64,000 nucleotides of DNA from Octopus vulgaris (GCA_951406725.2 OX597823.1:90396001-90460000), one strand, 5' to 3'. Counted from the first letter of the stretch, positions 2,737-63,116 are shown. Notes: a model not told the origin generated them from the letters alone. Made by a program: numbers and translations.

Positions 2737-2772
2737 GTTTCCGAAGAAGAGTGTTTGCTCGAAACGTTAAAC
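2737..2772 (+). ncRNA. Degenerate minimal hammerhead ribozyme motif in a Penelope-like terminal repeat remnant (about 2665-2880)
   Basis: GTTT-CCGAAGA-A-GAGT gttt GCTC-GAAAC-GTT-AAAC. Stem I is GTTT/AAAC, stem II is a hairpin and stem III is the palindrome AACGTT. The core reads CCGAAGA instead of CTGAAGA. Confidence 0.55.
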
Positions 2773-2905
2773 CACCTTTCTTTCCTTCCCTGAGCATCTG
2801 CTAATACTTTACATGTACCACATACTTGCATTGTAGTGTTTATAGTGTTTGTTGTTGTTCCTTTTTTCTTGATTTACTATATATATATATCTGTGTGTGT
2901 GTGTG

Positions 2906-2944
<39 letters not shown>

Positions 2945-2954
<10 letters not shown>

Positions 2955-3055
2955 CTGTGGTTGCAGAACAAACAAATATAAGGTCATCCATGTAATATGA
3001 AATGTTACGTGGATGACCTTAAATTTGTTTGTTCTGCAATCATAGTTTAATATAT
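2945..3055. repeat. Near-perfect inverted repeat (hairpin) with arms of about 54 bp and a 3-nt loop
   Basis: TAAACTGTGGTTGCAGAACAAACAAATATAAGGTCATCCATGTAATAT-gaa-ATGTTACGTGGATGACCTTAAATTTGTTTGTTCTGCAATCATAGTTTA. Confidence 0.9.
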
Positions 3056-3144
3056 TTGTCTCATTTAATTGAGCACTTCTATAGCAGTCCTATTAAACAT
3101 TTTGTTCCTGATAAGAAACAATCACTGTATTACTGATATATATA

Positions 3145-3290
3145 TCATCATCATCATCATCATCGTTTAGCGTCCGTTTTCCATGCTAGCATGGGTTGGA
3201 TTTCTACTGGGGTCTGTGAAGCCAGAAGGCTTCATCAGGCCCAGTCAAATCTGGCAGTGTTTCTACGGCTGGATGCCCTTCCTAACGCCA
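3145..3290 (-). mobile_element. RTE-type LINE 3'UTR end with (GAT)n tail
   Basis: Same terminal sequence as the ORF-linked copy at 48390-48950, and nearly identical to 61708-61860. Confidence 0.7.
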
Positions 3291-3308
3291 TATATATATA
3301 TGTATATA

Positions 3309-3351
<43 letters not shown>

Positions 3352-3611
3352 CACAAGAGAGTATACATATATATAAATACAAAAATGGGACAAGAACACA
3401 AAACATCCAGAAGACAATACAAAAAACATGGACGGGTCATTCGAAGTCTTTAATCTTCAGTCACTTGTCCCATTTTGTATTTTTTTATATATATATAGTG
3501 GTGTACGTACACTTTGTTCTCTTATATATATACATACATACATACACATATATACATATATACGTTTAAGGACTTTTACTTCACCAGATCTTATCTATTG
3601 TATATAAAGTG

Positions 3612-3932
3612 AAGGCACGTGGCTTAGTGGTTAGAGCATTCAGCTCATGATCAAAAGGGCATGAGTTCAATTCCCGGCGATACATTGTGTCCTTGAGCAA
3701 GACACTTTATTTCATGTTGCTCCGTTCCACTCAGCTTGCAAAAAATGAGTAGTACCTGTATTTCAAAGGGCCGGCCTTATCACACTCTTTGTCACGTTGA
3801 ATCTCTCTGAGAAGTACATTAATGGTACACATGTCTGTGGAGTGCTCAGCCACTTACACGTTAATTTCACGATCAAGCTGTTCCGTTGATTGTATCAGTT
3901 GAGACCCTTGTTGACACAACCGACAGAGTGCT
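3612..3932 (+). mobile_element. tRNA-derived SINE family C variant
   Basis: A box TGGCTTAGTGG and B box GAGTTCAATTCC. The 3' half matches 59190-59375. Confidence 0.75.
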
Positions 3933-4223
3933 CCTGTATATCTATTTATCTATCTATCTATCAATCTATCTATCTATATATATAGTAATCTATCTATATA
4001 TATATATATATATATATAGATATATATCAGTAAACCCTCAATTAGTAATATGTTAAAAAAAACATGAAACATGTAAAGTAGAAAAACAAGCACTAGAACT
4101 GCATACACACACACACACACAATTAAAGATGGTGCCAAAGCATGGCCTGAGCCGTAATGGTTAAAACAAACAAAAGCACTAAAAGAACTTATCTACGCCC
4201 CCCCACCAAGACATGCACAAACA

Positions 4224-4284
<61 letters not shown>

Positions 4285-5489
4285 ACTAATCAGGACCATA
4301 TATATTCATATACAGGCAGATGCATTTGTACATTCTTATCATTGATATATATATACATATATATATACATAACCACACACACACATCTATATATATCATA
4401 CATATTACATGTGTGTGCATGTGTATATCTATATAAACACACATATATATCCACTCCACAAATAAAAATCCAAGTGCCTGTATCCCAGCATGAAGGACAG
4501 AGTTTCCAAGTATTCCCCCTCCCTCTTCGCCACCCTTAACGAGTGATGGAAAATGGAAATCTGAGTGAAGTGATGTAGATCTGAGTTCATGTCGGTACAT
4601 TTGTGATCTGAGACTCTGAGAAGGAATGGTCAGGGTGGGGGAATGGAGTTGGGGTAAGGGGTGGTTGGCAGATAATAAGCAGAGATTATGCAAATATTTA
4701 GGAGATTGTGTGGTCTTCAGTGTAAAGTGTACAGTGATGTGTACACTTGTACCAGACTTAGACACACACACACACACACACACACTCACTCACGCATACA
4801 GACACACACACATAGGCAAACATACTGATAACAACATGCACAGGTAAACATATATACACGTACACACATAGAGGCAACACATACACACACAGGAGAAAGA
4901 AATGTGTATATGCACACACATACACATACAAGCATCACACATACACACACAGGCAAACACATGCATAGACATGCACACAAATGCACACACATGCAGGCAA
5001 ACACATACGAATACACAGACAAACACACATATGGGTGAGCACATACACTCACACAGGTAACTATACACCCCCCCATACACACACACATGCACAGAGGCAG
5101 ACATGTTCTACTAGACTGCCAAAGTATCTGATGATGAACTCCTGTTCAAAGGCCCTCCCATGTAGGGCTTTTAAGAAATATTGTACCAGGTAGAATGAAT
5201 TTCCTTTTGAGGCCCTCTCTGGGAAAGGGTTTAGGTTCCTATCAACTTTGTTAGGAATTCACAAGACTCCTTTCTTTGATCTGAACCTTTTCTTGGATTT
5301 CCAGGGCCTTGGTTCTATGCACCAGTTAAATGCCCATCTCTACTTCTGTTTCCAGGCAATATTTAACAGGAATACATATGCTCAGTAATGCAACATAACA
5401 ACATAGTAATGATATATATGCTACAATGTGCATACCCCCCCCAAACACACCAGACTTCTTATAGTCTCTGTCTACTAAATCCACTCACT

Positions 5490-5644
5490 TTTAGTCGAGC
5501 AAATTGACCCCAGGACTTATTCTTTGTAGGCTTCGTACTTATTCTATCAGTCACTTTTGCTGAACCGCTAAGTGACAGGGATGTAAACACACCAGCATCA
5601 GTTGTCAAGCGATGGTGGAGAGACAAACAATGACACACAAACAA

Positions 5645-5677
<33 letters not shown>

Positions 5678-5848
5678 TATATATACAACGGGCTTCTTTC
5701 AGTTTCCATCTACCAAATCTACTCACAAGGCTTTGGTCGGCCTGAGGCTATAGTAGAAGACACTTGCCCAAGGTGCCACGCAGTGGGACTGAACCCAGAA
5801 CCATGTCATTGGTAAGCAGGCTACTTACCACACAGCCACTCCTGCACC
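5490..5848 (-). mobile_element. SINE family A
   Basis: Reverse complement of head, microsatellite and tail; similar to 1937-2328. Confidence 0.8.
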
Positions 5849-6646
5849 TATATATATATATATCCCCTATATTTATGCGAGCTTGTGTGATCGACTAGAC
5901 TATTGGATGTTGTTATGCATCGCTGGTCACAATGCGCTTTGTGTGGTTTTAGCTTTTGACTGATACTACCCTACTGGCTAGTCCAAGTGGCCTAATGTCT
6001 GTTCCCCCTGATCAGAAGGCTGCTCTGTTGTAGGGTGGCCCATTTACAGCTGAGTGGACTGGACCAATGTGAAACGAAGTACTTTATTCAATCACAGAAT
6101 GTGCTGCCTGGTCTGGGAACCTAGCCCATGATCTAGTGACAATGAGGGCAACACCCTCACCAATAGGCCATGCGCTTTCACATGTATCCCACATTAATCT
6201 CTGATTAACTCATATCTAATTAATTACTAAACATTTATTGTGTTTGTTTATTTCTTATCTTTAAAATATAAAAGAAGCTAAGTCGGGCCAAAGTTGGAGT
6301 TTCCTTTCGTTACATTGTGATTAATAACAAACTGAAAATTTAATAAATATTTTGGAAAATGGCCACAAACTTTCCATTGATCTTTTGAAGCGTTTGCCAA
6401 CAGTGTCTCAAACTAACCTTGTAACAACTCCACTGATATTTTAAAATATCTTTTAACAACAAAATGCTGAATGATAAACTTTGAAGTCATTGAAAAAAAA
6501 AATACTAAGTCGTCGTTGTTGTTGTTGTTGTTGTCATCGCCGTCATCATCATCAGTTTAATGTGCACTTTCACTTGCTCCATTTTTACATCTGCTTTTGC
6601 ATGGGTGAGACCAGGGGTCAGTCAAGCAGTCAGTATTGAGTCCTAG

Positions 6647-6877
6647 GGCGGTGAGCAGGCAGAAACGTTAGCATGCCGGGCGAAATGCATAGCCGTATTT
6701 CGTCTGCTGCTACGTTCTGAGTTCAAATTCTGCCGAGGTCGCCTTTGCCTTTCATCCTTTCGAGGTCGATTAAATAAGTACCAGTTACGCACTGGGGTCG
6801 ATGTAATCGACTTAATCCGTTTGTCTGTCCTTGTTTGTTCCCTCTGTGTTTAGCCCCTTGTGGGTAGTAAAGAAATA
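6647..6877 (+). mobile_element. Full-length SINE family B (Nin-domain-like) with 15-bp TSD
   Basis: B box GAGTTCAAATTC and central GCCTTTCATCCTTTCGAGGTCGATTAAATAAGTACCAG (Nin-like). Flanked by the direct repeat AGTATTGAGTCCTAG at 6632-6646 and 6878-6892. Confidence 0.9.
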
Positions 6878-7169
6878 AGTATTGAGTCCTAGGGGTCAAT
6901 GTAGCTATGTAAGACATTGATAAACACCTGAAACGATTTTGATCATTAAGGGTGCTGAATAAATAGTGAACTGAATCTGGAAGAGTGTGGGTAATTTAAG
7001 GGTAAAACTCACTAATGTACAGTCAAATATCAATACAATATTAGTGTTTACCAAACACATATTATATCTCAAGTATTTTGATTGTATTAAGTCAGGTCTG
7101 AATTAGGGGCCTACATCATTGCTGTGTATGGTGCATTCAACATTCATTGGTATATATTACAGGATCCTC

Positions 7170-7400
7170 CTGGGGAACCCCTTGAGTAGAGGGTCAGTTC
7201 CCATCTCCACAAGATACCTCCTCATCTGTCACGACCATGGGGCATGTGGTTGACCAATACAAGCCATCAACCCAGTTGGATCCTCAATGAATAGAACATT
7301 GTAAGCAGGGTCCAGCTTGGGTCATTGAGGAACATGACCACTCAGTTTGAGTTGGCACTCTTGAATCATACAAGGGACTGGATGCATCCCAGTTTCTGGG
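7170..7400 (-). mobile_element. Decayed RTE-clade LINE ORF C-terminal fragment
   Basis: Manual translation gives ETGMHPVPCMIQECQLKLSGHVPQ*PKLDPAYNVLFIEDPTG...GQPHAPW. This matches the RTE C-terminal pattern (RQLRxxGHV...DP...GRP...W). Confidence 0.65.
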
Positions 7401-7497
7401 TTCAGTCCTGACTGTATTTATATAATATCATTAAATTTTATTCTTTATCAATTTTGTTGAGCATTTTCATTAAATTTCTTTAAATATTTCTTATTAA

Positions 7498-8320
7498 CAC
7501 GTTGCCTGCCACAGGACATCGATATGATCTGCTTCTATTTGCCAAAAGGGTTTTTATTAACTTTCTCAAATCAGAAAGCTGAAATATTTGGTGTGGTGGT
7601 ATATAGGTACATAATACATGTAATCACACTACAATGTCGTGATACAAGTTATCTCATAGTAATGCAAAATGCTCAGATTGGTTTGCTACGAAGGCTTTGA
7701 GGGGATGTTATGCATTATTTGACTATGTCTCTTCATTGTATGTTTTCTTTATTTTTTTCAGATTCACAAAGAACTATTATAAATTTTGATTTGTAATATA
7801 TAAGATGCCAAAAAGCCTTTCCAATGAAAAAATTGCTGGAGTGCTTCAGGAACCCGTGGTAAATGAACTATCGGAAGATGATATCTTAGAGTCAGAGAGT
7901 GAATACTGAGATGCTTTGGATAAAAATTAGCAAATACCAGTGGAAGTAAATACCAGTGAGGCCAGTTCCACTGACGAAGATGAACAATTAGTTGCTTGAG
8001 GTCATAAGAGACAACGCAGTTCTCCTGTACCGACAGCACCGAGTTCTCCGGCACCAACTGCATCGACATCTAATACCTGATATATATAGATGTTTTACCA
8101 AATATATTTCCTGGCTGGTGCCATGATATTAGTTAACTTGTATTATTGGGCAAATAAAAGGTGTCTTTGGTGTTTCCACTACACGCTCACAATGTTAGAT
8201 CCAGATGCCAGTTCATTTTAAGCTTGTTACAATAAAATAGACCTCTATGAGTATGCTCCTACCTGGCAAAATTGTATAGATTGGCTACTACGAGATAACT
8301 CGTTGTTGGCAGTCAAAATG
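7498..8320 (+). mobile_element. Internally deleted piggyBac-like DNA transposon
   Basis: TTAA lies at 7494-7497 and 8321-8324. TIRs are CACGTTGCCTGCCA and CATTTTGACTGCCA (11/14). An internal inverted repeat links 7644-7661 and 8286-8303 (16/18). An acidic N-terminal ORF remnant lies inside. Confidence 0.75.
7805..8080 (+). pseudogene. piggyBac-like transposase N-terminal remnant
   Basis: MPKSLSNEKIAGVLQEPVVNELSEDDILESESEY*DALDKN*QIPVEVNTSEASSTDEDEQLVA*GHKRQRSSP... has three internal stops. An acidic, Ser-rich N-terminus is typical of piggyBac transposases; no catalytic domain is present. Confidence 0.6.
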
Positions 8321-8356
8321 TTAAAAAGCAGTAACGACAGAAAAATAAATGACAGT

Positions 8357-8460
8357 TTCCTCTGAATCCATCCAACGGTTCTTGAGATATCTTGTCCACG
8401 GACAAACAAACAAACACAACTGAAAACAATACCTTTGCCTTCACTAAGGTGGAGGTAATA
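8357..8460 (+). mobile_element. Possible Helentron/DINE-1-like non-autonomous element 3' end
   Basis: A short (CAAA)n run is followed by the terminal hairpin ACCTTTGCCTT-cact-AAGGTGGAGGT and then AAT. Architecture only. Confidence 0.35.
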
Positions 8461-9249
8461 ATGATTTCAAATTTTGGTACAAGGCCAGCAATTTAGGGGT
8501 GGGGCTAAGACGATTGCATCAACCCCAATGTTCAACTGGTACTTATTTTATTGACCCCAAAAGGATGAAAGGTAAAGGGGACCTCGACAGAATTTAATAA
8601 ACATCAAAGTTTAAAAAGCAAAAATTATCTATATAGTTATGTGTGTGTGTGTGTGTTTGGCGGATATTAATTTGCATATCTTTCAACAAAAGTTCCAGAA
8701 GCAAAAACGAAAATAATATAAATATAAAAAAACTGCTGCACTCACACACACACACACGCACACACACACACACGCACAAGCACAAACACACACGTACACA
8801 CACACACGCACACACACACACACACGCGCGCGCACACGCACACACACACACACACACATGCACACACACACACACGCACACACACACGCGCACACACATG
8901 CACACATACACACATGCAAATACAAAAAATACAAAAAAGAAGAAAAAAAGTAAAAAGCAAAAGGATCCTAACGAACTGAAGCAGATTAGTTTTGCGTTAA
9001 TTAGTTATTTTATGAAATATGTTTTCTGTGTGTCTGCTGGGCAAAGATTCAGTTTAAGAAAATAGAAACTAAATCAGTAACCGTGTGTGTGTGTGTGTGT
9101 ATGTATATATGTGTGTGTGTGTGTGTGTGTGCAGTGTGTGTGTGCGTGTGTGTGTGTGTGCAGTGGGTATGTGTGCAGTGGGGTTTAGTCATGTAGTTTC
9201 TCAGCTCCAACAGGAATGAAACGATGTGTAATGAACAGAAACACTATAC

Positions 9250-10219: not shown

Positions 10220-10259
<40 letters not shown>

Positions 10260-10787: not shown

Positions 10788-10910
10788 TGAGGGGCTGTTG
10801 TAAAGTCGATAGCTTTGGGTAAAAGAAAATACAGGAGGATCAGTTAATTATGATTTTATTCAACGTATTCCCTTCTCAGATTCACACACTTATTGCAGTG
10901 GTCCTTCAGT
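10788..10910 (-). mobile_element. Mariner-like element 3' end fragment
   Basis: Reverse complement of 33210-33318. It encodes LKDHCNKCVNLRREYVE*, a mariner transposase C-terminal motif. Confidence 0.7.
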
Positions 10911-11119
10911 GGTCCTTCAATAGTCCTTCAGTGGTCCTTCAATAGTCCTTCAGTGGTCCTTCAGTAATCCTTCAGTGGTCCTTCAGTAGTCCACCAGTGG
11001 TCCTACAGTGGTCCACCAGTGGTCCTTCAGTGGTCCTGCCGTGGTCCTTCAGTGGTCCTGCCGTGGTCCAGTGGTGGTCCTTCAGTGGTCTTCCAGTAGT
11101 CCACCAGAGGTCCTTCAGT
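10896..11119. repeat. Minisatellite, 11-bp unit CAGTGGTCCTT, about 20 imperfect copies
   Basis: Directly visible tandem array. Confidence 0.9.
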
Positions 11120-11648: not shown

Positions 11649-11721
<73 letters not shown>

Positions 11722-24085: not shown

Positions 24086-24795
24086 TCATCGTTTAACATC
24101 TGCTTTCCAAGCTAGCATGGGTTGGACGATTTTGACTGAGGGTTGGCGAACCAGATGGCTGCACCAGGCTCCAATCTTGATCTGGCAGTTTCTACAGCTG
24201 GATGCCCTTCCTAACGCCAACCACTCCGAGAGTGTAGTGGGTACTTTTTACGTGCCACTGGCATGGGGGCTAGTCAGGCAGTACTGGCAATGACCTCGCT
24301 CGAATCTTTTTACACATGCCACCGGCACAGTTGCCAGTAAGGCAATGTTGGTGACGATCACGCTCGAATGGTGCCCTTTTATGTGCCATGGCATGGGGGC
24401 CAGTCAGGCGGTACTGGCAATGACTTCACTCAAATCTTTTTACACATGCCACTGGCACAGGTGCCAGTAAGGCAATGTTGGTGACGATCACGCTCGAATG
24501 GTACCCTTTTATGTGCCATGGCATGGGGGCCAGTCAGGCGGTACTGGCAATGACCTCACTCGAATCTTTTTACACATGCCACTGGCACAGGTGCCAGTAA
24601 GGCAATGTTGGTGACGATCACGCTCGAATGGTGCCCTTTTATGTGCCACGGCACGGGGGCCAGTCAGGCGGTACTGGCAATGACCTCGCTCGAATCTTTT
24701 TACACATGCCACTGGCACAGGTGCTAGTAGTAAGGCGATGTTGGTAACGATCACGCTCGAATGGTGCCCTTTTACATGTCACCGGCACGGAAGTC
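24082..24795 (-). mobile_element. RTE-type LINE 3'UTR with an expanded 130-bp tandem array (about 4 units)
   Basis: The anchor (C/T)AGTCAGGC recurs at 24271, 24401, 24531 and 24661, giving a period of 130. Units are near identical and each has two related halves of about 65 bp. Confidence 0.85.
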
Positions 24796-25242: not shown

Positions 25243-25494
25243 AGGTGAGAAAAAATAGTACTCAAATACCAGAGGTAGAGTAATATAATTTATTAATATA
25301 ACTGCAAAGATATCACAGAAACTGTTATTCAGAGTTTCACAGTCCCGTTTGTCAGACAGTTTTGTTTCTAAACGAAGTTGTCCGATGAACGGGAACCTGA
25401 ATCTCTGGGTAACAGTTTTTGTGATAGCTTTGCAGTTATATTAATAAAGCATATTACTCTACCTCTGGTATTTGAGTACTATTTTTTCCCACCT
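25243..25494. mobile_element. Palindromic element (arms about 120 bp), each arm carrying a degenerate hammerhead motif; inverted Penelope-like terminal repeats
   Basis: AGGTGAGAAAAAATAGTACTCAAATACCAGAGGTAGAGTAATAT... is mirrored by ...ATATTACTCTACCTCTGGTATTTGAGTACTATTTTTTCCCACCT. Motifs lie at 25319-25362 (-) and 25375-25418 (+). Confidence 0.8.
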
Positions 25495-25519
25495 TGTTTC
25501 GCATTTATGTGCTTACTCT

Positions 25520-25580
<61 letters not shown>

Positions 25581-26650: not shown

Positions 26651-26694
26651 ACAGTCTGATGAAGGTGAGAAAACTGAAACTTCGAAGTCACTGT
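26651..26694 (+). ncRNA. Minimal type-I hammerhead ribozyme with intact catalytic core
   Basis: ACAGT-CTGATGA-AGGTgagaaAACT-GAAAC-TTCGAA-GTC-ACTGT. Stem I is a perfect 5 bp, CUGAUGA and GAAA are canonical, stem III is the palindrome ACTTCGAAGT, and the triplet is GUC (predicted cut after 26689). Confidence 0.8.
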
Positions 26695-27054
26695 CAAACT
26701 TTTTTTATGTAAAAGTTAACGAATATGCAATACTAAAAATTATTCAATAATTCTCCAGTTTAAGAGTACCGTATTTTAGCATAAACAAAGAACCCTCTTT
26801 TGTTAAAAATTAGGTTAAAATAAAATGGGAGTTTCTTATACATAAATAATATTATAATCCAAATTTTAAGTCCCCAAAACAAAGGAATTCCTTGTACACA
26901 AGGGTTGTTTATATACATTAAAATATGGTAAATTGTTTTTTTTTTTTATGTAACTTGACTTTAAAGTAAACATCCACAAACATTTTGTGCCTGTGTATGA
27001 GTGTATAATGAGTATACACGCATTATGTGTTTGTATATTTATCACTCGGTGATA

Positions 27055-27711: not shown

Positions 27712-27797
27712 AACCTTATGATTGTTTCGAGGAAGGCATTTGTATTGGGCGAATTTTTCATCTGATACAAATAGTCGCATTTCTCTCATCAGAAATA
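27712..27797 (-). ncRNA. Hammerhead motif with long stem II, partly decayed
   Basis: CTGATGA-GAG...ATTTGTAT...ATACAAAT...CTC-GAAAC-AATC-ATA. Stem III can be restored to the palindrome ACGATCGT by reversing two CpG>CpA changes (inference). Confidence 0.55.
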
Positions 27798-28069
27798 CAA
27801 ATAAAATTATTAAAATAGTTTAAAAATTGAAAAAGCTTAAAATGTCTCCTACTTATAGAGCTTGAGTAATGTTATAGTTTTAAAAAATGTCATAGTATTT
27901 TAAAAAAAGTTTGCAAGGATATAGAAAAAGGCTTTGTTGAAGTGAAAAAAAAGTTGTGAAGTAAAACATATGTGTATATAAATATATATATGTGTGTGTA
28001 GATGTTGAACAATGAGAATGAGTGCTCAACACTGCAGTGGTGGATAAAGATCCTTCATTTGTATATTAA

Positions 28070-28125
28070 GGCTACCATTGGTTTCATGTTAAGAAAAATA
28101 TCTTAATATCTTAATTTATCAAGTC
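28070..28125 (-). ncRNA. Degenerate hammerhead-like motif
   Basis: TTGATAA...ATATTAAGA/TCTTAACAT hairpin-GAAAC-CAATG-GTA. The 5' core box has two substitutions. Confidence 0.35.
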
Positions 28126-28197
28126 AGTCACTTGGAGGAAAGACGTTCATTTCCATTTTGGATGAATATACAATACATATATATATATATATATATA

Positions 28198-28612
28198 TCA
28201 TCATCATTGTTTAATGTCTGTTTTCCATGCTGGTAGGGGTTGGACGGTTCAACTTGGGGTCTTGGAAGCCAGGAGGCTGCACCAGGCTCCAGTCTGATCT
28301 GGCAGTGTTTCTACAGGTGGATGTCTTTCCTAACACCAACCACTCCGAGAGTGTAGTGGGTGCTTTTTATGTGCCACTGGCACAGGGGCCCGAGGGGGCT
28401 GGCATTGACAACATTTGGATGGTGCTTTTATGTGCCACTGGCACGGGAGCCATAGGGAGCCGGCATTGACCACGTTTGGATGGTGCTTTTATGTGCCACC
28501 AGCACAGAAGCCAGTCAAGGGGGTGTTGGCATCAGTGACATTCGGATGGTGCTTTCTACATGCCACTGGCACAGGAGCCAATTGGAGTGAGGGGGCTGGC
28601 AGCGACCACGTT
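28198..28612 (-). mobile_element. RTE-type LINE 3'UTR with four GGTGCTTTT subunits
   Basis: Conserved terminus plus repeated subunits of about 60 bp. Confidence 0.75.
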
Positions 28613-33318: not shown

Positions 33319-33737
33319 TTTTTATGTTATATTATAACAGTCATAAATTTATAACTTATGTTGTTTTTGTCTTTTTCTCTCACTAATCATTTCTCTGTTT
33401 CATTCTCTCAGTTTTGTACTTTTTTCTGATGAAGTATTAACCCTTTTTTGCTCAACCATTTTTGCCTATGGACCCCTTTGATTTCTATTTTACTCCACTG
33501 GACCCTCATGTTAAAAAAATCCCATTATATCTTTAGAATTAAATATGAGTAGAAATTGTTAAAAAAAATTGTTAAAATTTTTATGTACTGTCAAAGTATA
33601 ACACATTTATTGCAGATAAATTTTAGCAATAAAATCTCATATGAATCTCCTAAGAGTCATATGGACCCCAACTGAAAACTACTGAGACCTTATGATTTTT
33701 ATTCTTAATAAATCATTTGGCAAATATCATTGCTCCT

Positions 33738-33773
33738 TTTTCTGATAAAGGGCTAATGTCCAAAACATTAAGG
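33738..33773 (+). ncRNA. Decayed minimal hammerhead motif (Penelope pLTR remnant)
   Basis: CTGATAA-AGGGCtaatGTCC-AAAAC-ATT-AAGG has the same layout as 2737-2772, with G>A changes. Confidence 0.4.
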
Positions 33774-35507
33774 CTAATTCTCTTCTCATTAAAGCCTTAA
33801 ACTGATATTGTACTCGCTAAACCTTGTCTCTCCTGTGTTGTCTTTTTTATTATTCATTGTATTTACACTATGGTACAAGCTGTTAGTCTGTGACCAATCA
33901 TATTCAAATAAGATAGGCTGTGACCAATCACATTCAAACGAGATAAAAAAACAAAATAAAAAAAATCTACAACTTACCTTCCTCAAAAAGTTTCTTTGGT
34001 ATACTCCTTATATTATTTGTTGTTTATATTTATATATTTATTTTGTTAAGCCTTTGTTGATAATGAAAGGTGAGAAAGAGGTAGAGGAGGGGAGAAGATG
34101 TTTCAAGCACCCCACCGTTTCACTTTGAGTATATAATGGAATAATCCACAGTGTGATATCAGATGGAATTTTGAAGACTCGTGTAAGTAAATGTCCCAAT
34201 GGCACTGTAAATAACCAAATATGTCTGGAGATTTTCTGAAAATAGATCAATTATGGCAATTAGTAAAGAAGATTGAGAAAAAATAAGCAACAACATTAAT
34301 TCTTTCTAATTTGGGCACAAGGCCAGCAATTCTAAGGAATTTAACACTAACAACAGCAACATCAGTCATAGCAACATAAAAAGAAAACCCATCACAATTT
34401 AGTTTTGTGCAAAGGGACAGACATGTGTGTGTATGTGTGTGTGTGTGTGTGTATAAAATGGAAGCAATAATTACAAACTAGCCTATCACTTAATCAGCAA
34501 TTCATGTCTGAGGAAGTGAGTGAACGATAATAATTTTATAGCACATATTAAATCTGTCTATCTGTCTGTCTATCTGTCTCTTTCTCTCTCTCTCTTCGTC
34601 TCTCTCTTTTTATATATATAAAATTCAATTTTCCTCATTGAAATTATTATTATTAAGACACACACACGGTGACCTTCTTTCAGTTTCTGTCTAACAAATC
34701 CACTTAGAAGGTTTTGGTTGGCCCAAGACTATAATAGAAGATAATTGTCCAAAGTGTGATGCTGTGGAACTGAACCCTAAACCATATGGCTGGGAAGCAA
34801 ACTTCTTAACTACATAATCATGTGACACACTGGATAATGCAATCCCAGAATGCCTCATTCATTGGTTTCATCAATGAGTTCTCAATTGTTTTACTCATCT
34901 GAAGCAATTTGCTCATTAAATTAACATAAAAACTGGCTGAATATTCCTCAGATATAGTCCACCCTTATCACAATTCTCAGAATGAATCAATGTAACAAAA
35001 TAAGTGGCAGGAAATTTTCAATTCATTAATTTTTAATTAATTACAGGTGCTCTCGATTTGTTAGATATTTTATTTTACTGACCCCGGAAGGGTAGTAGAT
35101 AATGTTTGACTGCAAAGGGTTTTGAACTTAGAACAGAAAATTGTAACTAAATATAGTACTACAGCAACACTTTGATGTTGCCTCAACTGGTTCACACCAT
35201 AAATAATGTGGTACTACTTTAAGAAATTAGTGTAATTAACTTTACGGTAATCTCCTTAGTATAACAAATGTAGGAGAAAAAATAATGGGAAAAAATATTT
35301 AAAAAAAATACTTTATCACTTTTAAGGTGAGAGAAAAAGAGAGAAAAAGGGTAGAACAAGTGTGAGAGAGAGAGAGGTAGAGAAAGAGAGGGGGAAGGAG
35401 ACAGAGTGGGAGGAGGAGATGAAAATGTATATACATACAAAATATAGATATGCTTACACACACACACACACATAAACATACATATACCATTTTAGGTATA
35501 TAAACAT

Positions 35508-38339: not shown

Positions 38340-39660
38340 GTTTCTTTATTGGCCATGCAATGCTGAACACAGAAGGGACAAAATACTAAGTAGAGCTTTT
38401 TTTTTGGGAAGAGAAGAAGGAAAAAAAAGTGGGGAGTAGAAATTCGATCAAAAGGGATTGTAAAAAAAAAAAGGCTGAACAATAGGGATCGTGTATCACA
38501 GAGATGTCATAATGTAAAAAGGGGAAACAGATTAGGTTTATCTGTGGAAAGAAAAGCCGACTGAAAAGACCACTTTAACCTCGGGCAATTATGTCATGAA
38601 AAAAAAACACGTTACAGTGATTCTTCTTTCCTTCTTTTTTTTTTAGTTCATAGGATTATGTTCAAGCTGGCTCTGTCTTTCACACATGCTATCCTTGCTA
38701 CATTCACCCATCTTTTTTTGAAACATTCACTAGACAAAACTTCCCTCTATTCTCATCTTCCTTTTCAATTGATACTTGAAGAAGAGAGAGGAAAGTGTTT
38801 GTCTCTAGACCTTTCAGATGCATCCACCATACACATTCTTTTGCCATAGCAACAAGTATGATGAAAATGGCTCTTCCTTCTCATTTCAAAGAAGGATGCA
38901 TGACAATATTCAAAATAGACTTGGTTGATAAACTGACTTGTCCCACATGCGACAGCAGTCGTTTGACATAGGCCTACAGTTCGGAAATGGTTGGACACTG
39001 TACGAGTGCATGTAGAATGGTTTCATTGCTCTGATCACATCTTGGGCAGGTCAGTCTTGTATTTCTCGAGCCATGCCTGTAGAGCTTATCCCGAACGGGT
39101 AGCACTTCTCGATAGCACTGCCAGGCCAGGGATCTCTGGAAGTTGTCCATAGGTCCTGGCCTGAAAGTCTTCTTGAACAGGCGGGTCAGGTATTCCTCGT
39201 CAATGCCCAGGTTCACCCCGAGGTGATCGTTGTACCTCCCCTCCACTAATCCCCTATAGAATGCTTTGGTTGTGTTGAAGTCGCTCAAGGTTGATCCAGA
39301 ATGGCATAGTTGCTTCAGAGCAACACGACACTCGCAGTACCATTCACCCTTCCTTGGCCTCTTTTTGATCCTCGACTGCAGTTCAGTCATGGAGATGAGC
39401 TGCGAGAAAGTGCACCTCACAAACAGTGACCACACATGTTCACCATTGTCTACAAAGAGCCAGAGATGTCGCATTCTCAGCACGTGTCTGTGCATCATCA
39501 ACCACAGCATGCCCAGCTCTCCTTTTAACAAGTGTTGGCAGCAAACAGATTGCCTGACCATCAGAACATCCTTTCCACAAGAAGTGGAAGGGAATGCGTT
39601 CTAGTTTGGTGATGGTAGGGTTGGGACAAGGCACGGCGGTCAGGCAGTAGTAGGTGGGTG
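38340..39660 (-). mobile_element. 5'-truncated Tx1/L1-like non-LTR retrotransposon
   Basis: ORF2 C-terminus plus a 3'UTR ending ...GGCCAATAAAGAAA, followed by (TCTA)n. Confidence 0.85.
38648..39660 (-). pseudogene. LINE ORF2 C-terminal remnant with CCHC zinc finger (zf-RVT-like)
   Basis: ...LERIPFHFLWKG / CQHLLKGELGM...AWQCYREVLPVRDKL...CPRCDQSNETILHALVQCP...FKKRWVNV...LNIIL*. Contains frameshifts and stops. Confidence 0.85.
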
Positions 39661-41265: not shown

Positions 41266-42568
41266 TATTAAAGTGCTACTAATAGTTTCATATGTTGAGA
41301 AATATCTCAAATATATTTTTCAGGTGTAAACGAACTAAAAGATTGAATAAATAGAAGAAACACAATGAAGCTAAGAAAGCAGCACATAGAAAATGCAGAC
41401 AGTAAACAACAGAAAATGAAACGAAAGTGTCAAAAGGTAAAAAGTGCTACACTCCTTAGGCCTTAAATGAGAAGGCTGGAATGATATCAAAGCAGTCAGG
41501 AATAAGGGGAATTTTCCACTTCTTCAGAATATATTTATATATATTAATCAAAATATTAGTAATAGATCTAGTGGCACCAAAGATAAAGTAATACCTTATT
41601 ACTCTAGTACTAATCATGATAATAAGAAACCAAAAAATAGGCCAAGGAAAATAATTTGGTTTGCCCTTCCCTTTTCCCTTAATATAAAAACTAACATTGG
41701 TAAAAGATTCCTGTCTCTCCCAGACAAACACCAGCTGCTCACAGATACAGGAAAATATTTTATAGGCGTTCTGTAAAATTATTATATAGCTGCTGCCAAA
41801 ATATGAAGAGTATCATTACACGTGGTCAACACCAAGAGCCTGAATCCAGCTGCAACTGTCGCAACCCAGGATCATGTCCACTTGACTAACGATGTAAGAG
41901 TAAATCTATCATATATAATGCAGAAGTTACTGCAACCCTAAATAATAATACAACTGATAAGAAGACCTATATTGGATTATGTGAAGGAGAATTTAAAAAT
42001 CTCTATGCCAATCACATAGGACAAAGGGACAAAAATAAAGCTAGTAAGTTAGCTAGCTACATATGGACTTTGAAAGATAATGAAACACTGCTTGTGATTA
42101 AATGGAAAATAATTAAGAAATCCATATTTTATGTGAATGGATCGAATAAATGTAGACTTTGTTTGGCTGAAAGAGTGCAGATCCTGTTCAGAACTAAGAT
42201 CCCTAACTCTCTATTGAACTCCAGGTCAGAAATTTTCAATGGTTGCATACATATGTATCAATATATTCTGAAGAATTGGAAAATTCTGCCTATCCCTGAC
42301 TGACTTGATATCTTTCCAGCCTTCTCATTTAAGGTCTTAGGAGGATAGCCCTTTCAGGCACTTTAGTTTTGTTTACTGTTTTTCATTTTCCATTTTCGGT
42401 TTTTCTTTTTCCGTTGTTTCCTGTCTATGTTTTCTATCTGCTGCCTTCTCAGCTTCATCGCATTTCTTCTATTTATTCAATTTTTTAGTTCGTTATGATA
42501 TGTGGTTTGCACCTGAAGAATATGTTTGAGTTCTCTCAACACATGAAACTATTAGTAACACTTTAATA
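41266..42568 (+). mobile_element. 5'-truncated Penelope-like retroelement bounded by inverted terminal repeats
   Basis: 41266-41542 is a diverged reverse complement of 42252-42568. A GIY-YIG coding remnant lies between them, and each repeat has a hammerhead-like motif. Confidence 0.85.
41560..42303 (+). pseudogene. Penelope-like linker plus GIY-YIG endonuclease remnant
   Basis: RKIIWFALPFSLNIKTNIGKRFLSLPDKH/..RKIFYRRSVKLLYSCCQNMKSII...CNCRNPGSCPLD*RCKSKSIIYNAEV...KKTYIGLCEGEFK...H...LASYIWTLK...IKWKI...CRLCLAE...LLNSRSEIFNGCIH. At least one frameshift and one stop. Confidence 0.85.
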
Positions 42569-43339: not shown

Positions 43340-43429
43340 CTGGGCTACATATGTTTCATAGCGAGTGGAACCTCAGAAGTGGTAAATATGCAAGTGAGGT
43401 GTACATCAAAGGCTACTCTTCAGGTCAAG
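43340..43429 (-). ncRNA. Hammerhead motif, intact core, long stem II, weak stem I
   Basis: CTGAAGA-GTAGC...ACCTCA..TGAGGT...GCTAT-GAAAC-ATAT-GTA, with palindromic stem III ACATATGT. Confidence 0.6.
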
Positions 43430-47644: not shown

Positions 47645-48060
47645 ACATCATCATCATTATCATTGTTTAACGTCTGCTTTCCATGCTGGCATGGGTTGGA
47701 CGGTTTCATTTAGGTCTGGAGAGTCAGCAGTTGCACCAGGCTCCAATCTGATCTGGCAAGGTTTCTACTGCTGGATGCCCTTCCTAATGCCAACCACTCC
47801 AAGAGTGTAGTGGGTGCTTTTTATGTGCCAGCAGTACAGGAGCCAGTCAGGTGGGCCTGGCATCATTCACATTCGGATGGTGCTTTTTACATGCCACCAG
47901 CAAGGGGGTCAGTCAGGGGGTACTGGCATCAGCCATGTTCAGTTGGCACTTTTTACGTGCCACTGGTATGGGGGCCAGTTAGGGGCCCCTGGCCACAGCT
48001 ACAATATTGGTTTTACATCACTCAACTGGTCTTCTCAAGTATATCATATTGCACAACAAA
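47645..48060 (-). mobile_element. RTE-type LINE 3'UTR
   Basis: Conserved terminus and three subunits. Confidence 0.75.
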
Positions 48061-50268: not shown

Positions 50269-50969
50269 CCTACTCTTGAGCCAACAACGGTGTCTCTCTG
50301 TAGCTACTCAAATTGCTAAAAGCAGCAGCTAAATAGCCCTCAAATAACACACCCTGCAATCTTTAAAGAAAAAAGAAAAGTTGCCTTGGATAACATAATC
50401 TGAGGTGAAGTATACAAAATGCTCAAAAGATAAGATAAGATTTTTTTGCTTGTTTCAGTCACCTATGAGGCTGACAGAGAATCCATCTGTCTAAGTGATA
50501 AAATAATTTCCCAGTAAACTAGAGATCTAGGTTCCAATTCCGGTCAGTACATCAGTTAAATTCTTCTTTTTAAATCTCAAAATGTACCTCACAAATGGAT
50601 CCCTTTGAATATTATTTACACCCGATTTCAGTTTGCATCCACAAAATATCACCAAGTATGTTAAAGGTTTATAAGCCTTTGATCTACCTTTTGTGTTAGC
50701 AGTGAAATTTAATCATTTTAAAGTTTATCTCTACAGATTTGCCATCAAATTGCTAAAAGCAGCAGCCAAATTTAGAGCCAGCACTGAAAGTTGCTATGTT
50801 TTACATATAAATATGTTTATGCAAAAAATGTGGTCAAAGATAGGAAAATAGGGAATGGATGTTGCCAGGAATGTGTTTAATATGAAAAACTAGTCTCTCC
50901 AATAGTGTTACACTGTTACATGTAGTGGCTGTTTAAGCAATGTATTTGTGGATGGTTAATGGGCTGAAT

Positions 50970-51013
50970 GTAATACTGAAGAAAGAGTAAAAACTCCTGA
51001 AATATGTATATAC
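50970..51013 (+). ncRNA. Minimal hammerhead-like motif
   Basis: ATA-CTGAAGA-AAGAGTaaaaACTCCT-GAAAT-AT-GTA-TAT. Core boxes are present but the stems are short. Confidence 0.45.
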
Positions 51014-52263
51014 ACTCATTAGCTATTTTTCATCTTCAATCACAAAGTTTACATTGACATATTTATATAAAATAACATCATAACTTTTAATATCTTTCTT
51101 TTACTCTTTTACTTGTTTCAGTCATTTGACTGCAGCCATGTTGGAGCACCACCTTTAACATATAATGTGGTGAAAGAGTCAACAGAAGTTCGCCATTACC
51201 TTCTACCAGAGCCGCGTGGAGCTTAAGTGTTTCGCTCATAAACTCATACATCGCCCGGTCTGAGATTCAAACCCACGATCCCTCGACTGTGAGTCTGCTG
51301 CTCTAATCACTAGGCCATCTGTAGAGATAATGTTGAATATTGTTTATACAAGGTGCAACAAAAAAAAAAAAGCCTTAAGCTTCACTGTTCTTGATAAATC
51401 TTTCAACAACATAAGCACAATATGCAGTGGGTCAAACCAACCTAATAACCACACAGAAACTGGTAAAACATTAGCTATCAGAAGACATTATTTCCATCTG
51501 CTTAATCTCACTAGTTCCACAACAATGCTTGTATAAAATATGGGAGAATTTTTCTGCCACACCCTGTATTTATAAAACACATTAGCTACCAAATTATTTC
51601 TATTCATTCTTGTTATTTTTCAAGGGATTATCCTAATGGCTACACCAAATCCATCCATCAAAACAGATTGTCTCAGTATGTTAGACATCACTAGAAGACC
51701 ACCATTATATACAAACAGATAACATTAAATATTATCCATATTAAAATCTTAGCTGCCGGTTAATATAGTATTTCCGTACTAATTCGCTTGTTTACATGAA
51801 ATCAAGATGGCCTATCTGGTTATGTTAGACATTAATTGAAGAAGCTTAACTCTGTGGAGCTAAGCTGCGGAGCAAATATTAATGGAATCAGTGAAACTAA
51901 TGTCAAGATGACAGCTCAATGTTGCAAACAGATATTTGTACTTTAAAAAAAGTGAAGAGGTGTAGGTGTAGCTGGGTGGTTAAGAAGCTTGCTTCCCAAC
52001 CACATGGTTCCAGGTTCAGTCCCACTGTGTGGAACCTTGGGCAAGAGTCTTCTATTATAGCCCTATCAGCAATTTAAATGGCTACATTTAAGCCATTGAA
52101 AGACTTAACTTTTGTTCAAAAAGAAATCTCAGAAAGAATCTTTTGAGATGTGGCACAAACAGATCCAAAGACCCTTTTTTCAGTGAGGTGGCAGGGACAC
52201 TAATAATATAATAATAGATTACACTGGTTAAATGATTGTATAGAATATCTATTACTGATTTGT

Positions 52264-53878: not shown

Positions 53879-53921
<43 letters not shown>

Positions 53922-53998: not shown

Positions 53999-54037
<39 letters not shown>

Positions 54038-60556: not shown

Positions 60557-60926
60557 AGAGGTGCAATGGCCCATGGGTAAGGGCGGTGGACTCGCAATTG
60601 TAGGATTGCGGTTTTGATTCCCAGACCAGATGTTGTGAGTGTTTATTGAGCGAAAACACCGAAAGTTCCATGAGGCTCCAACAGGGGGTGGTGGCGAACC
60701 CTGTTGTATTCTTTCACCACACTTCTTTCTTCCTGTTTCTATTGTACCTGTATTTCAAAAGGGCCAGCTTTGTCACACTCTGTGTCACGCTGAATCTCCC
60801 TGAGAACTACGTTAAGTGTACATGTGTCTGTGGAGTGCTCAGCCACTTGCACGTTAATTTCATGAGCAAGCTGTTCCGTTGATCAGGTCAGTTGGAATCC
60901 TCACCATCATAACCGACGGAGTGCCA
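60557..60926 (+). mobile_element. SINE family C
   Basis: Colinear with 58994-59377. A head-only minus-strand copy lies at about 51165-51320. Confidence 0.85.
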
Positions 60927-61277
60927 TGATTTAGCATTTTTACATAATATAATGATTTAATATTTGAAAAAATCTATATAAAATACTTGAATGAGAATTA
61001 CAAGTTTGCTTCGATTTTGGTAAGCTTTAATCAGCGTTTGGCGTTAAATTAGTTCCAGAATGTAGCAGACAGTTCTTCAAATTAGAATCAGTGAATTGCG
61101 ACTACATTTTGATTGTTTTAAAATCACTTTATATGTATTTGTTTGTTTTCTTTATTACCCATAGAGGGCGACTATTATATGTATTTGTTTAGTTGGACAT
61201 CTTTCTAAAACAACAAATACAGCAGATGGGAGTCTGGTCAAATCTTGTTGGTACTGATAAAATATTCTTTTCTACTC

Positions 61278-61490
61278 TAGGCACAAGGCCCGAAATTGTT
61301 TGGGGAGGGGGCTAGTCAATTACATCAACAATAGTACATACACAACTGGTACTTAATTTGTCAACCCCCCCACCAAAAAGGATGAAAGGCAAAGTCGACC
61401 TTGGTGGAATTTGAACTCAGAATGTAAAGACAGACGAAATACCACTAAGCTATTTGTCTGGTGTGCTAACGTTTCTGCCATCTCACCTCT
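61278..61490 (-). mobile_element. SINE family B (alternative tail)
   Basis: Reverse complement of 30359-30575. Confidence 0.75.
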
Positions 61491-61707
61491 GTGGTACTGA
61501 AAAAATATTCACAAAATAATGGATTAGGTGGAAGCATGTGGCTTAATGGTTTGGGTGCTGGACTCATGATCCTTAGATGGTGCTTTCTATTCCTTGACCA
61601 GGTATTCTTGAGCAAAACACTTCATTTCATGTTGCTCCAGTCCACTCAGCTGGTAATAATTACTAAATCTGTGATGGACTGGCAACCCATCCAGGTGGGA
61701 AAATACA

Positions 61708-62022
61708 CATCATCATCATCATCATCATCATTTAGCGTCCGTTTTCCATGCTAGCATGGGTTGGACGGTTCTGCTGGGGTCTGTGAAGCCAGAAGGCTTC
61801 ATCAGGCCCAGTCAAATCTGGCAGTGTTTCTACGGCTGGATGCCCTTCCTAACGCCAACCACTCCGTGAGTGTAGTGGGTGCTTTTTACGTGCCACCCGC
61901 ACTGGTGCCAGACAGAGCTGGCAAACGGCCACGAACGAATGGTGCTTTTTATGTGCCACCGGCACGATGTGCCACCGATGTGCCACCGATGTGCCACCGA
62001 TGTGCCACACACGATGTGCCAC
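61708..62022 (-). mobile_element. RTE-type LINE 3'UTR ending in an 11-bp tandem array
   Basis: Conserved terminus, with GATGTGCCACC repeated about 4-5 times at 61966-62022. Confidence 0.75.
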
Positions 62023-62040
62023 ACACACATATATATATAT

Positions 62041-62083
<43 letters not shown>

Positions 62084-62096
62084 CACATATATATAT

Positions 62097-62137
<41 letters not shown>

Positions 62138-62150
62138 CACATATATATAT

Positions 62151-62193
<43 letters not shown>

Positions 62194-62670
62194 CACATAT
62201 ATATATACACACACACATATATATATATATATATACTCTTTTACTCTTTTACTTGTTTCAGTCATTTGACTGCGGCCATGCTGGAGCACCGCCTTTAGTC
62301 CTGCAACTCGACTCCGGGACATTCTTTGTAAGCCCAGTACTTATTTTAGCGGTCTCTTTTGCCAAACCGCTAAGTGACGGGGACATAAACACACCAGCAT
62401 CGGTTGTCAAGCAATGCTAGGGGGACAAACACAGACACACAGACATACACTCACACACACACACATATATATATATATATACACACACATGCATATATAT
62501 ATATACACACATATATACACACACACATATATATATATATATATAGATATATATAAATACATACACATATATATACATACAGGGAGAATTCACAAAAAAA
62601 CAAAAGACAAAGACAGGTGGTGTAGACAATAAACAGATGTATTAGTATAATGCTTGGGAAGTGAAAAAGT

Positions 62671-62706
62671 CTTTAACATTTCGAGCCTACACTCTTCCAC
62701 AGAAAG
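62671..62706 (-). ncRNA. Degenerate minimal hammerhead motif in a pLTR remnant (about 62580-62772)
   Basis: CTTT-CTGTGGA-AGAGTgtagGCTC-GAAAT-GTT-AAAG; same family as 2737-2772. Confidence 0.5.
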
Positions 62707-63046
62707 GAACACAGAAAGAAACAAGGAGAGAAAATAAAGAATGTGTAGTGGCTAGCGATCTATCATGGTGAATATATATATATACACACATATATACATA
62801 CATACATATACATATATATATACACATGCACACATACATAAAAAGTGTATAGTATTTCTTTCCTTTTAATTTTCACACTAAGATTTTCATAATTTCAAAT
62901 CTTGGTAAGTAGTTTTAATTCTATCATTTGCTGCTGACCATGTGACTGCACCTGTGCATTTGATTTGAAAACATAAATGTATAAGCATGCAGTACACGTG
63001 GAATTTTGGTGTGTATTTGCTGCATAATTACATATTGTCTTAGGCG

Positions 63047-63116
63047 ATCCCACTGATGAAGTACAGATGACTAATTAATTTATTTGTTCATTAATACAGA
63101 CACTCGAGTTTGGGAT
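63047..63116 (+). ncRNA. Hammerhead motif with one core substitution
   Basis: ATCCCA-CTGATGA-(long imperfect stem II)-GACAC-TCGA-GTT-TGGGAT. Stem I is a perfect 6 bp and stem III is the palindrome ACTCGAGT; GAAA is changed to GACA. Confidence 0.65.

Follow-up and report, generated by a model that had tools for sequence, protein, structure and literature searches.

The 64,000-nucleotide stretch of the Octopus vulgaris genome analysed here (the window) contains many short motifs resembling hammerhead ribozymes, which raises the question of whether these are genuine ribozyme relics, which element left them behind and whether any copy is still of use. A sequence-only reading had described a dispersed, diverse population of minimal hammerheads belonging to a Penelope pLTR or retrozyme-like system. 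Our analysis indicates that the 13 motifs are very probably decayed copies of 11 type I hammerhead families. These families likely represent the pseudo-LTRs at the 3' end of Penelope-like retrotransposons, with insertions that would have stopped after 100-400 bases.

A hammerhead-like motif with the type I layout is present at 13 of 13 coordinates, and these loci belong to 11 genome-wide repeat families with stems that differ from one another and still pair. Copies are labelled below, with the start of each locus in brackets, as 2741 (2737), 25355 (25319), 25382 (25375), 26656 (26651), 27792 (27712), 28122 (28070), 33742 (33738), 41323 (41277), 42513 (42513), 43423 (43340), 50976 (50970), 62702 (62671) and 63053 (63047). 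The stems quoted in the sequence-only reading (ACAGT/ACTGT, ATCCCA/TGGGAT, AAACTGT/ACAGTTT and GTTT/AAAC) are present, and so are its stem III palindromes (ACTTCGAAGT, ACTCGAGT, ACATATGT and AACGTT). The literal order CTGA(T/A)GA ... GAAA ... TH is intact in only five of the 13 (26656 and, likewise on the plus strand, 42513 and 50976; 27792 and 43423 on the minus strand). That reading was silent on strand, and six loci (25319, 27712, 28070, 41277, 43340 and 62671) lie on the minus strand; the word minimal does not suit several of them, the stem II region measuring 25-59 nt in five families.

The hammerhead at 2737..2772 (plus strand) is minimal, with the core of a U4C subfamily, a two-base-pair palindromic stem III and a predicted cut after 2768, and the unit around it (about 2665-2873, ~210 bp) is flanked on both sides by (TA)n. 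The motif at 25319..25362 (minus), which carries G8A, is the inverted 5'-truncated partner (about 25243-25367) of the copy at 25375..25418 (plus), in which A15U is found on top of the family's U4C and whose unit (about 25365-25521) has (TA)n at its end. At 26651..26694 (plus) the hammerhead has a 10-nt palindromic stem III and a predicted cut after 26689, with homology over about 26651-26761. Long stem II regions are found at 27713..27796 (minus; 57 nt, intact core, stem III broken by CpG decay), 43343..43426 (minus; 59 nt, intact core, one mismatch in stem I) and 63047..63116 (plus; 39 nt, A14C, unit about 62916-63172). Damaged stems I and II characterize the copy at 28070..28125 (minus; U3-A8 core family, unit about 27996-28170), and the minimal hammerhead at 33739..33772 (plus; unit about 33737-33867) is old and CpG-decayed, with G8A and G12A. 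The hammerhead at 41273..41327 (minus; G8A) belongs to an inverted 5'-truncated copy (about 41266-41544) of a Hydra element with a (TAT)n/(TA)n tract at its end, and that at 42509..42561 (plus; intact core, broken stem I) lies ~208 nt past an ORF stop in an element ending at (TA)n near 42685. The remaining two are located at 50972..51016 (plus; intact core, weak stem I, unit about 50873-51086) and 62671..62706 (minus; minimal, intact stems, abundant A6U family, unit about 62593-62775).

Core mutations are found in five copies (25355, 25382, 33742, 41323 and 63053), and three others (2741, 28122 and 62702) carry the core variant of their family. The only copy whose core is canonical and whose stems I and III are both intact is 26656; ten of the 13 copies are broken in the core or in the stems and two more have non-canonical cores, so that the window population is mostly fossil. 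In folding computations the palindrome of 26656 by itself gives no hairpin, whereas two copies of it pair at -12.5 kcal/mol, and the minimum free energy (MFE) structure of the monomer differs from the hammerhead fold.

Motifs of this kind could be chance matches in AT-rich DNA, a reading whose probability is now practically nil. A strict descriptor, too restrictive to recover decayed copies or long stems, found one match in the window (26656; mean of 0.03 in 100 shuffles), and a relaxed descriptor found 12 at a score of at least 5 (mean 1.3, maximum 4, in 30 block shuffles) and seven at a score of at least 6 (0.4 in shuffles). Loci of the sequence-only reading make up only six of these 12; the extra match at 52348 is a microsatellite, and five others (5128, 12778, 29704, 37917 and 59531) lack relatives among the fetched DNA and were not counted, so some descriptor matches may be chance. 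That half of the window matches lie outside the families speaks for chance, as do the Rfam searches, in which the hammerhead families (RF00163 and others) had no match above the gathering threshold in the whole window and none was found around 26656 at E<=10. Genome-wide, 73 of 263,217 candidates were scored against the Rfam hammerhead families and six of them matched. In a separate Rfam search, the 150 rows listed of 301 were without exception microsatellites resembling miRNA or sRNA families. The repeat search of the window was likewise dominated by microsatellites. Against chance stand a blind sample of 1.16 Mb, where perfect-core matches number 59 compared with about 0.6 in shuffles, and the family majorities, which retain both core and pairing; for the 13 listed loci the chance reading is already refuted. 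Match rates thus exceed those of shuffled sequence in window and blind sample alike. By extrapolation from the latter, the genome is estimated to hold ~1.4e5 perfect-core motifs (100,000 or more), and 78 blind-sample matches fall into 42 clusters. The density of the window is typical of the genome, and the proposed frequency of roughly one hammerhead per 6 kb agrees with our counts (one per 5-6 kb including decayed copies, one per 20 kb with a perfect core).

At the sequence level, the firm support for the 13 motifs is homology. Ten of the loci were each searched against the octopus genome, and for every one of them all 40 candidates scored (the locus itself among them) matched, out of 85-4832 first-look candidates; the 62671 family emerged from the blind sample. 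Family majority sequences were assembled from homology alone, their members being the best BLAST matches and not random copies, and core and stem pairing are kept in these majorities. The majority core is canonical in six of 11 families. The others are a canonical/U4C mix in 2741 (U at position 4 in 15 and C in 14 of 29 relatives), U4C in 25382 (C4 in 19/24 relatives), U3-A8 in 28122 (both bases in 19/19), A6U in 62702 and a core without G12 in 33742, where CpG decay has left a majority reading AAAA/CA from which an intact ancestor is inferred. U4C as mere CpG decay was rejected in both families concerned: in 25382 C-to-T and G-to-A derivatives both occur, so C4 is ancestral, and in 2741 there are two subfamilies and G5 is found in 29/29 relatives. 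Stem I has 3-8 pairs in ten of 11 majorities, with T-A, C-G, A-T and G-C at the same positions across families; it is weak in 50976, where the first pair forms in 7/20 relatives. Stem III is palindromic in ten of 11, being decayed in 33742. An unpaired base after A9 together with G10.1-C11.1 is clear in 2741, 62702 and 33742, and in 63053 is accompanied by a 3' bulge; in 27792 stem II opens with G-C and the extra base is absent, and in the other six families it opens with A-U or G-U. Overall divergence is 116/2478 in the core versus 2907/25336 in the flanks, although in two burst-like families the core is conserved no better than the flank. Outside the window, another family has a flipped G3-C8 core pair.

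The connection with Penelope is visible within the window itself, where the 42513 hammerhead lies directly downstream of a Hydra-type endonuclease remnant and has an inverted partner (the 41277 locus). The ORF at 41534..42303 (plus strand) is the broken 3' part of a Penelope-like frame of the Hydra clade, with a frameshift, an in-frame stop and a deletion. Its translation contains a CxCX5C linker, a YIG of GIY-YIG type and CxxC..E..N..CxH, with no CCHH, the clade features being those defined in section 11 of PMC8557442; an assignment to Nematis was rejected, as the published motifs fit Hydra. The N-terminal reverse transcriptase region, where the DKT and RWK motifs of the clade lie, is missing from this ORF, DKT being seen in the homologue P0096 only. 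The Pfam search left the endonuclease frame unrecognised and a PDB search starting from a long homologue was uninformative; the identity of the frame is based on homologues and motifs. Hydra-type endonucleases are located upstream on the same strand in 4/23 copies of the 27792 family and 4/36 of the 43423 family, and contiguity with the hammerhead was seen by eye in three 27792 and two 62702 copies. In the 42513 family 31/37 copies are ORF-linked, a figure inflated by a query that included the ORF end. No upstream endonuclease was found for 26656 (0/36), 28122 (0/27), 33742 (0/15), 50976 (0/23) or 63053 (0/33); 25382 has one of doubtful contiguity at a single locus, and 2741 one at a locus 1 kb off across low-complexity DNA, a weak link. 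The Penelope pLTR reading holds, with one family tied to an ORF inside the window (42513) and three elsewhere in the genome (27792, 43423 and 62702), and what had been taken for ORF-less units are 5'-truncated 3' ends of longer elements in these four families, less securely in a fifth and by inference in six.

The 62702 family provides a complete element, on C26, composed of (TA)n, a hammerhead-bearing pLTR, fragments of an ORF in which DKG, YIDD and YIG are found, a second pLTR and (TA)n. Its pLTRs differ by 18 mismatches over 970 nt, the upstream one being about 950 nt long. With its CX2-5CxxC linker, C-terminal GIY-YIG, pLTR-ORF-pLTR order and RVT_1 match (E=1.9e-6, just under the cut-off), the 62702 unit is, judged by motifs, the 3' end of a Neptune-like Penelope element (Neptune/Nematis). 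The family is the commonest, with an estimated 6e4 or so copies. Among 24 blind copies U6 is present in 23, N7 is each of the four bases six times and H17 is never G; shared variants affect 1/15 structural versus 39/91 flank positions (p=0.008), and the fixed A6U core still looks constrained.

Copies are ragged at the 5' end and stop abruptly at (TA)n some 100 nt beyond the cleavage site. In agreement with the earlier remark that several units abut (TA)n tracts, (TA)4 occurs within 330 nt downstream in 43/54, 37/46, 35/47, 28/35 and 19/22 copies of five families versus a background of 28%, and is near background in 33742 (4/14) and 50976 (4/22). In the 42513 (Hydra) family (TA)n is found in 28/35 copies at a median of 99 nt past the cut site; distances are tight, and several families have two end classes, as for the Penelope 'tail'. 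Assembled contigs from four presumed-RNA runs match parts of the 42513 family, and some of them span the predicted cut site; their ends do not pile up, but contigs cannot show RNA ends and so argue neither way. Inverted partners are present at 15/32, 7/26 and 5/30 loci in three families, and head-to-head pairs are common but tandem arrays are not; same-strand pairs 150-450 bp apart occur at only two loci across the 11 families, none in the window. A retrozyme origin is not supported for the window families, which are dispersed singles or head-to-head inverted pairs and not head-to-tail arrays. Among tail-bearing blind copies, 48/54 run on into the hammerhead and none clearly begins at the cut site, in agreement with PMC11167929, where uncleaved RNA is the main substrate.

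In the Penelope model, and by analogy with known Penelope biology, the element endonuclease would nick (TA)n and reverse transcription would begin at a constant position beyond the cleavage site, at a distance of 70-150 nt except in two families, where it is about 170 and 235 nt. An early stop would be usual, leaving nearly every insertion with a hammerhead and little else, and the template was likely uncut, since copies run through the cleavage site. Selection on the motif would likely act only in active source elements. Where pLTRs stand in tandem, two palindromic stem III halves would pair and the long transcript be cut, perhaps with the help of the element's protein, and solo genomic copies, lacking a partner, are predicted to decay neutrally and to be mostly inactive.

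Plain random truncation does not predict that 5' ends cluster in the two commonest families (2741 and 62702), near -76 and -70 to -100 from C3, with 32/35 blind copies within -103, and this counts against our preferred explanation. Such clustering would suit another origin, in which some families (25382, 26656, 28122, 33742, 50976, 63053 and, in its short form, 2741) are solo elements without autonomy. They would be short RNAs made up of a hammerhead and possessing a 5' end of their own, which Penelope proteins copy in trans, and thereby a dispersed cousin of animal retrozymes. This origin is unlikely, though it has several points in its favour: homology in 26656 and 25382 begins at or just before stem I, five families have no ORF link and that of 25382 is doubtful, a 359-bp head-to-tail hammerhead array (L172) lies in another part of the genome, and the protein could come from a young Penelope family whose open frames reach 869 aa (150/150 scored matches 98-100% identical). 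However, 62702 looks like an equally short unit and yet turned out to be the terminus of a complete element, same-strand pairs are as rare as stated above, and ORF-bearing copies are under-sampled because the copies fetched were chosen by likeness to short queries. That the host keeps some copies as working ribozymes cutting their own transcripts is far less probable still. Copy 26656 is intact and a perfect-core motif occurs about every 20 kb, but almost all window copies are broken or non-canonical, burst-like families do not preserve the core better than the flank, solo copies have no dimer partner and the 26656 monomer does not favour the hammerhead fold; no host gene was identified, and no Pfam match above the cut-off was obtained for 80 of 120 non-repeat window frames.

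The population also suggests that many short unclassified repeats of the octopus genome may be Penelope ends. It may also be, although we consider this rather doubtful, that few natural collections of hammerheads are as dense and as varied as that of the octopus genome, with its 1e5 or more motifs in at least 42 families, the commonest family having ~60,000 copies with U for the near-invariant A6 and the rest of the fold kept, and that A6U and G3-C8 are working natural variants or else the fold is kept for a non-cutting role, e.g., protein binding. If true, this would bear directly on why Penelope carries hammerheads, the role of which has been called unclear (PMC8557442), cleavage being dispensable for insertion in vitro (PMC11167929). 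The scale and the 62702 A6U family are possibly new; neither A6U nor G3-C8 family cores appear in the parts of PMC4209133 consulted, and its supplement or Luense et al. 2017 may describe either. The value lies in a resource: a single genome provides dozens of families whose cores are canonical, U4C, U3-A8, G3-C8 or A6U, recently active members among them, and this diversity allows a direct test of whether cutting or the fold alone is under selection.

The axolotl genome is far larger than the octopus genome. It contains 126,247 retrozyme motifs in two families (PMC7229834; bioRxiv 10.64898/2026.07.22.740005), compared with 42 clusters among only 78 matches of the octopus blind sample. Animal non-LTR retrozymes, as described in the same sources, resemble the window families in the type I hammerhead, in a unit length of a few hundred bases and in a relation to pLTRs, but form head-to-tail arrays and circular RNA, whereas the window families are dispersed or inverted. 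The Penelope-hammerhead arrangement is known, with one octopus Hydra family listed in PMC8557442, and with most copies fossil the finding is ordinary for a Penelope-rich animal genome. According to Cervera and De la Pena (2014; PMC4209133), pLTR minimal hammerheads number 2,000-9,000 motifs per genome, compared with an estimated 1e5 or more in octopus, where stem II regions also reach 57-59 nt. As in that study, the octopus hammerheads are type I with a stem I of 4-5 bp, in some families an extra base after A9, and a palindromic or absent loop 3, and belong to many diverse families per genome, mostly as single truncated copies, with nearby opposite-strand pairs and a U3-A8 variant. The 62702 family differs from Neptune/Nematis clades in the U at core position 6, its putative clade being assigned by motifs. 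The window ORF shares its linker and endonuclease motifs with the Hydra clade, including Hydra-1_Obim of Octopus bimaculoides (Craig et al., 2021; PMC8557442), and although the window families differ by eye from the hammerhead row of Hydra-1_Obim, they resemble that clade in their (TA)n targets, a hammerhead about 100 nt from the 3' end and a stem III with a one-base loop (File S2).

Hammerhead-like motifs are widespread in this 2.80-Gb genome (227 contigs). They were sought in a blind, not formally random sample that took 10 kb at each of 116 round positions spread over 29 large contigs and excluded four window-flank stretches. Perfect-core matches scoring at least 7 numbered 32 in 600 kb against a shuffle mean of 0.2 and, in a second batch, 27 in 560 kb against 0.4 (10 shuffles each). 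This density, one per 20 kb, extrapolates to ~1.4e5 per genome, or to 1.25e5 when one 7-copy array is left out. The 78 blind matches scoring at least 7 fall into 42 clusters, 28 of them singletons. Because matches scoring at least 6 occur at 0.87 per 10 kb in the blind average and at 1.1 in the window, the window is typical of the genome. The window (C10:90396001-90460000) has a GC content of 37% and abundant (TA)n tracts, and at least 56% of it has matches in other fetched DNA; among 80 of its 120 non-repeat frames none had a Pfam match at cut-off, and no host exon was identified.

The sequence-only reading had described diverse hammerheads at roughly one per 6 kb, and their rate in the window exceeds chance: a relaxed descriptor, tolerating as many as two altered core positions and a stem II no longer than 70 nt, gave 12 window matches at score at least 5 versus 1.3 in 30 block shuffles, only six of the 12 being loci listed in that reading. 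For five of the other six, no relatives were found in the fetched DNA. The proposed hammerhead order held in part: a motif is present at all 13 coordinates (minus strand in six), but only the copy at 26656, the single match of the strict descriptor, is intact. Those at 2741 and 62702 are intact except for the core variants of their families, U4C and A6U, respectively. The copies at 27792, 28122, 42513, 43423 and 50976 have a usable core and damaged stems, and those at 25355, 25382, 33742, 41323 and 63053 a mutated core. The window also holds high-copy dispersed repeats that lack a hammerhead match (968-1095, 2118-2344, 6644-6882, 47653-47952 and more copies), which are likely SINEs and one of which adjoins the 43423 copy. 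Tandem repeats lie at 24246-24774 (period 130), 28359-28580 (period 61) and 10896-11119 (period 11), and a 208-aa frame at 38974-39600 (minus strand; zf-RVT, E=1.3e-6) is a LINE 3' remnant.

In own-genome DNA searches with 10 families, all 40 scored candidates matched each time at ~70-93% identity (85-4832 first-look candidates per search); family sets are the best 20-30 loci of each search, and the family of the 62702 copy (62671) was obtained from the blind sample. Majority sequences, made without any structure filter, keep the core and its pairing: stem I of 3-8 pairs in 9/10 and a palindromic stem III in 9/10, both differing in sequence between families. The exceptions are 50976, with the first stem I pair in 7/20 copies, and 33742, with CpG decay. 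Differences from the majority affect 116/2478 non-CpG core cells versus 2907/25336 flank cells; in the two families of burst-like character, core divergence is no lower than that of the flank (6.2 versus 5.7%, and 6.0 versus 3.8%). This pattern fits selection in source lineages followed by neutral decay after insertion; the contrast may be exaggerated by edge effects of the alignments and by the use of BLAST-selected copies.

With the remainder of the motif intact, the blind sample contained 42 canonical, 16 U4C, 13 A6U, 8 G3-C8 and 5 U3-A8 cores (0-1 in each of three shuffles for the first four, 1-3 for U3-A8), and eleven other cores gave 0-3 matches. A G3-C8 (flipped pair) repeat family outside the window (L196:6067-6081, L197, L210, L221, L363, L125, L132, L300), often in perfect head-to-head pairs, comprises 7/8 G3-C8 matches in 1.16 Mb (0 in three shuffles). 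In 24 blind copies of the A6U family, some 97-99% alike, U6 is present in 23, N7 is A, C, G and U six times each, and position H17 holds A in 17, U in 5, C in 2 and G in none. In the 40 copies left after 15 of 55 rows had been removed (14 belonging to the related 2741 family, one a chimera), shared variants occur at 1/15 structural positions outside the search pattern versus 39/91 in the flank (p=0.008; 0.019 and 0.005 at stricter thresholds), the filter having favoured a pyrimidine-rich 5' side. A promoter or protein site could produce this pattern; as a candidate ribozyme, the A6U family is the part of the finding worth a bench test.

The 3' ends are sharp and adjoin (TA)n in most families, (TA)n being not above background in 33742 and 50976. 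Median distances past the cut site are 99-108 nt in four families and 146, 73, 170 and 235 nt in 27792, 28122, 63053 and 43423, respectively; in three families a further group of copies ends earlier, near 33-45 nt. The 5' ends are ragged; in 2741 and 62702, the two commonest families, they cluster no more than ~100 nt upstream of the core. Inverted partners, mostly head-to-head, occur in 10/11 families (up to 15/32 loci), although some are widely separated and probably inserted independently; short tandem spacing occurs at only two loci across the 11 families. Blind copies with the 3' tail continue into the hammerhead in 48/54 cases; of the other six, two begin within the tail, one is decayed, and the rest are explained by a deletion, the edge of a locus and the junction of an inversion.

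A Penelope pLTR origin, also proposed from sequence alone, is supported by ORF links in four families, one of them represented by a complete element. Window 41534-42303 holds broken linker and endonuclease coding with 3127 relatives at E<=0.001, the long ones carrying RT motifs and weak GIY-YIG matches; the 42513 hammerhead lies ~208 nt downstream, and an inverted truncated copy, head-to-head with that element, at 41266-41544. In a profile search of all loci, copies with a same-strand endonuclease upstream numbered 31/37 in 42513 (biased, as the query included the ORF end), 4/23 in 27792, 4/36 in 43423 (three of them within a single 2.9-kb tandem array) and 3/48 in 62702 (two contiguous, Neptune-like). 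The search gave one doubtful locus in 2741, one non-contiguous locus in 25382, and none in 26656, 28122, 33742, 50976 and 63053. The 2.9-kb array (L164-L166, C2:193.997-194.006 Mb) consists of mixed repeats, each unit with a 43423-family copy and a Hydra endonuclease remnant. One blind locus, when extended, yielded a complete (TA)n-pLTR-ORF-pLTR-(TA)n element. Each of its pLTRs carries the A6U motif, the two differ by 18 mismatches over 970 nt, and the ORF pieces measure 452, 268 and 334 aa. A young Neptune-like family (L112:2100-2891, minus strand, and 150 places), with many inverted pairs, has open frames up to 869 aa and a U3-A8 hammerhead ~150 nt past the stop; all 150 scored endonuclease matches are 98-100% identical, which suggests that Penelope machinery is recently or still active. 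Elsewhere, L173 (C1:70.00-70.01 Mb) carries a gag frame of 429 aa and a pol frame of 1038 aa that resemble those of LTR retrotransposons, a label given by eye.

These families, their ends, the ORF links of four of them and their decay probably reflect target-primed reverse transcription that initiates internally on the element RNA, with (TA)n as its target, and stops early. The template would remain uncut at the hammerhead, as in PMC11167929, and cutting would be dimer-dependent in tandem source elements, as PMC4209133 proposes. The MFE fold of the 26656 monomer is not a hammerhead, and its palindrome is predicted to pair only between two copies.

In a literature search with subscription papers mostly outside its reach, we found no octopus or cephalopod hammerhead survey and no A6U or G3-C8 natural cores. 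U4C, A6C and U3-A8 are reported as natural cores (PMC3088659), A6C favours Mn2+ (PMC7151607), and PMC13282606 counts 31 Penelope-like families with recent activity in O. vulgaris, its main text containing neither 'ribozyme' nor 'hammerhead'. Hammerhead-bearing Penelope ends are a known kind of system, and File S2 of PMC8557442 includes the Hydra-1_Obim hammerhead. In many blind-sample families the stem II region spans 45-65 nt (e.g., L173:969, L317:5753, L341:1587, L354:5226), greatly exceeding the helix of 7-8 bp reported for Penelope hammerheads; short-loop descriptors would overlook such motifs. Head-to-tail arrays at L172:2307-4513 (5 copies plus 2 inverted) and L322:7262-7625, with units of ~359-363 bp and one hammerhead per unit, are retrozyme-like as that term is defined in the literature. 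The coding remnant at 41534-42303 matches both the CxCX5C linker and the CxxC..E..N..CxH motif of the Hydra clade as given in section 11 of PMC8557442.
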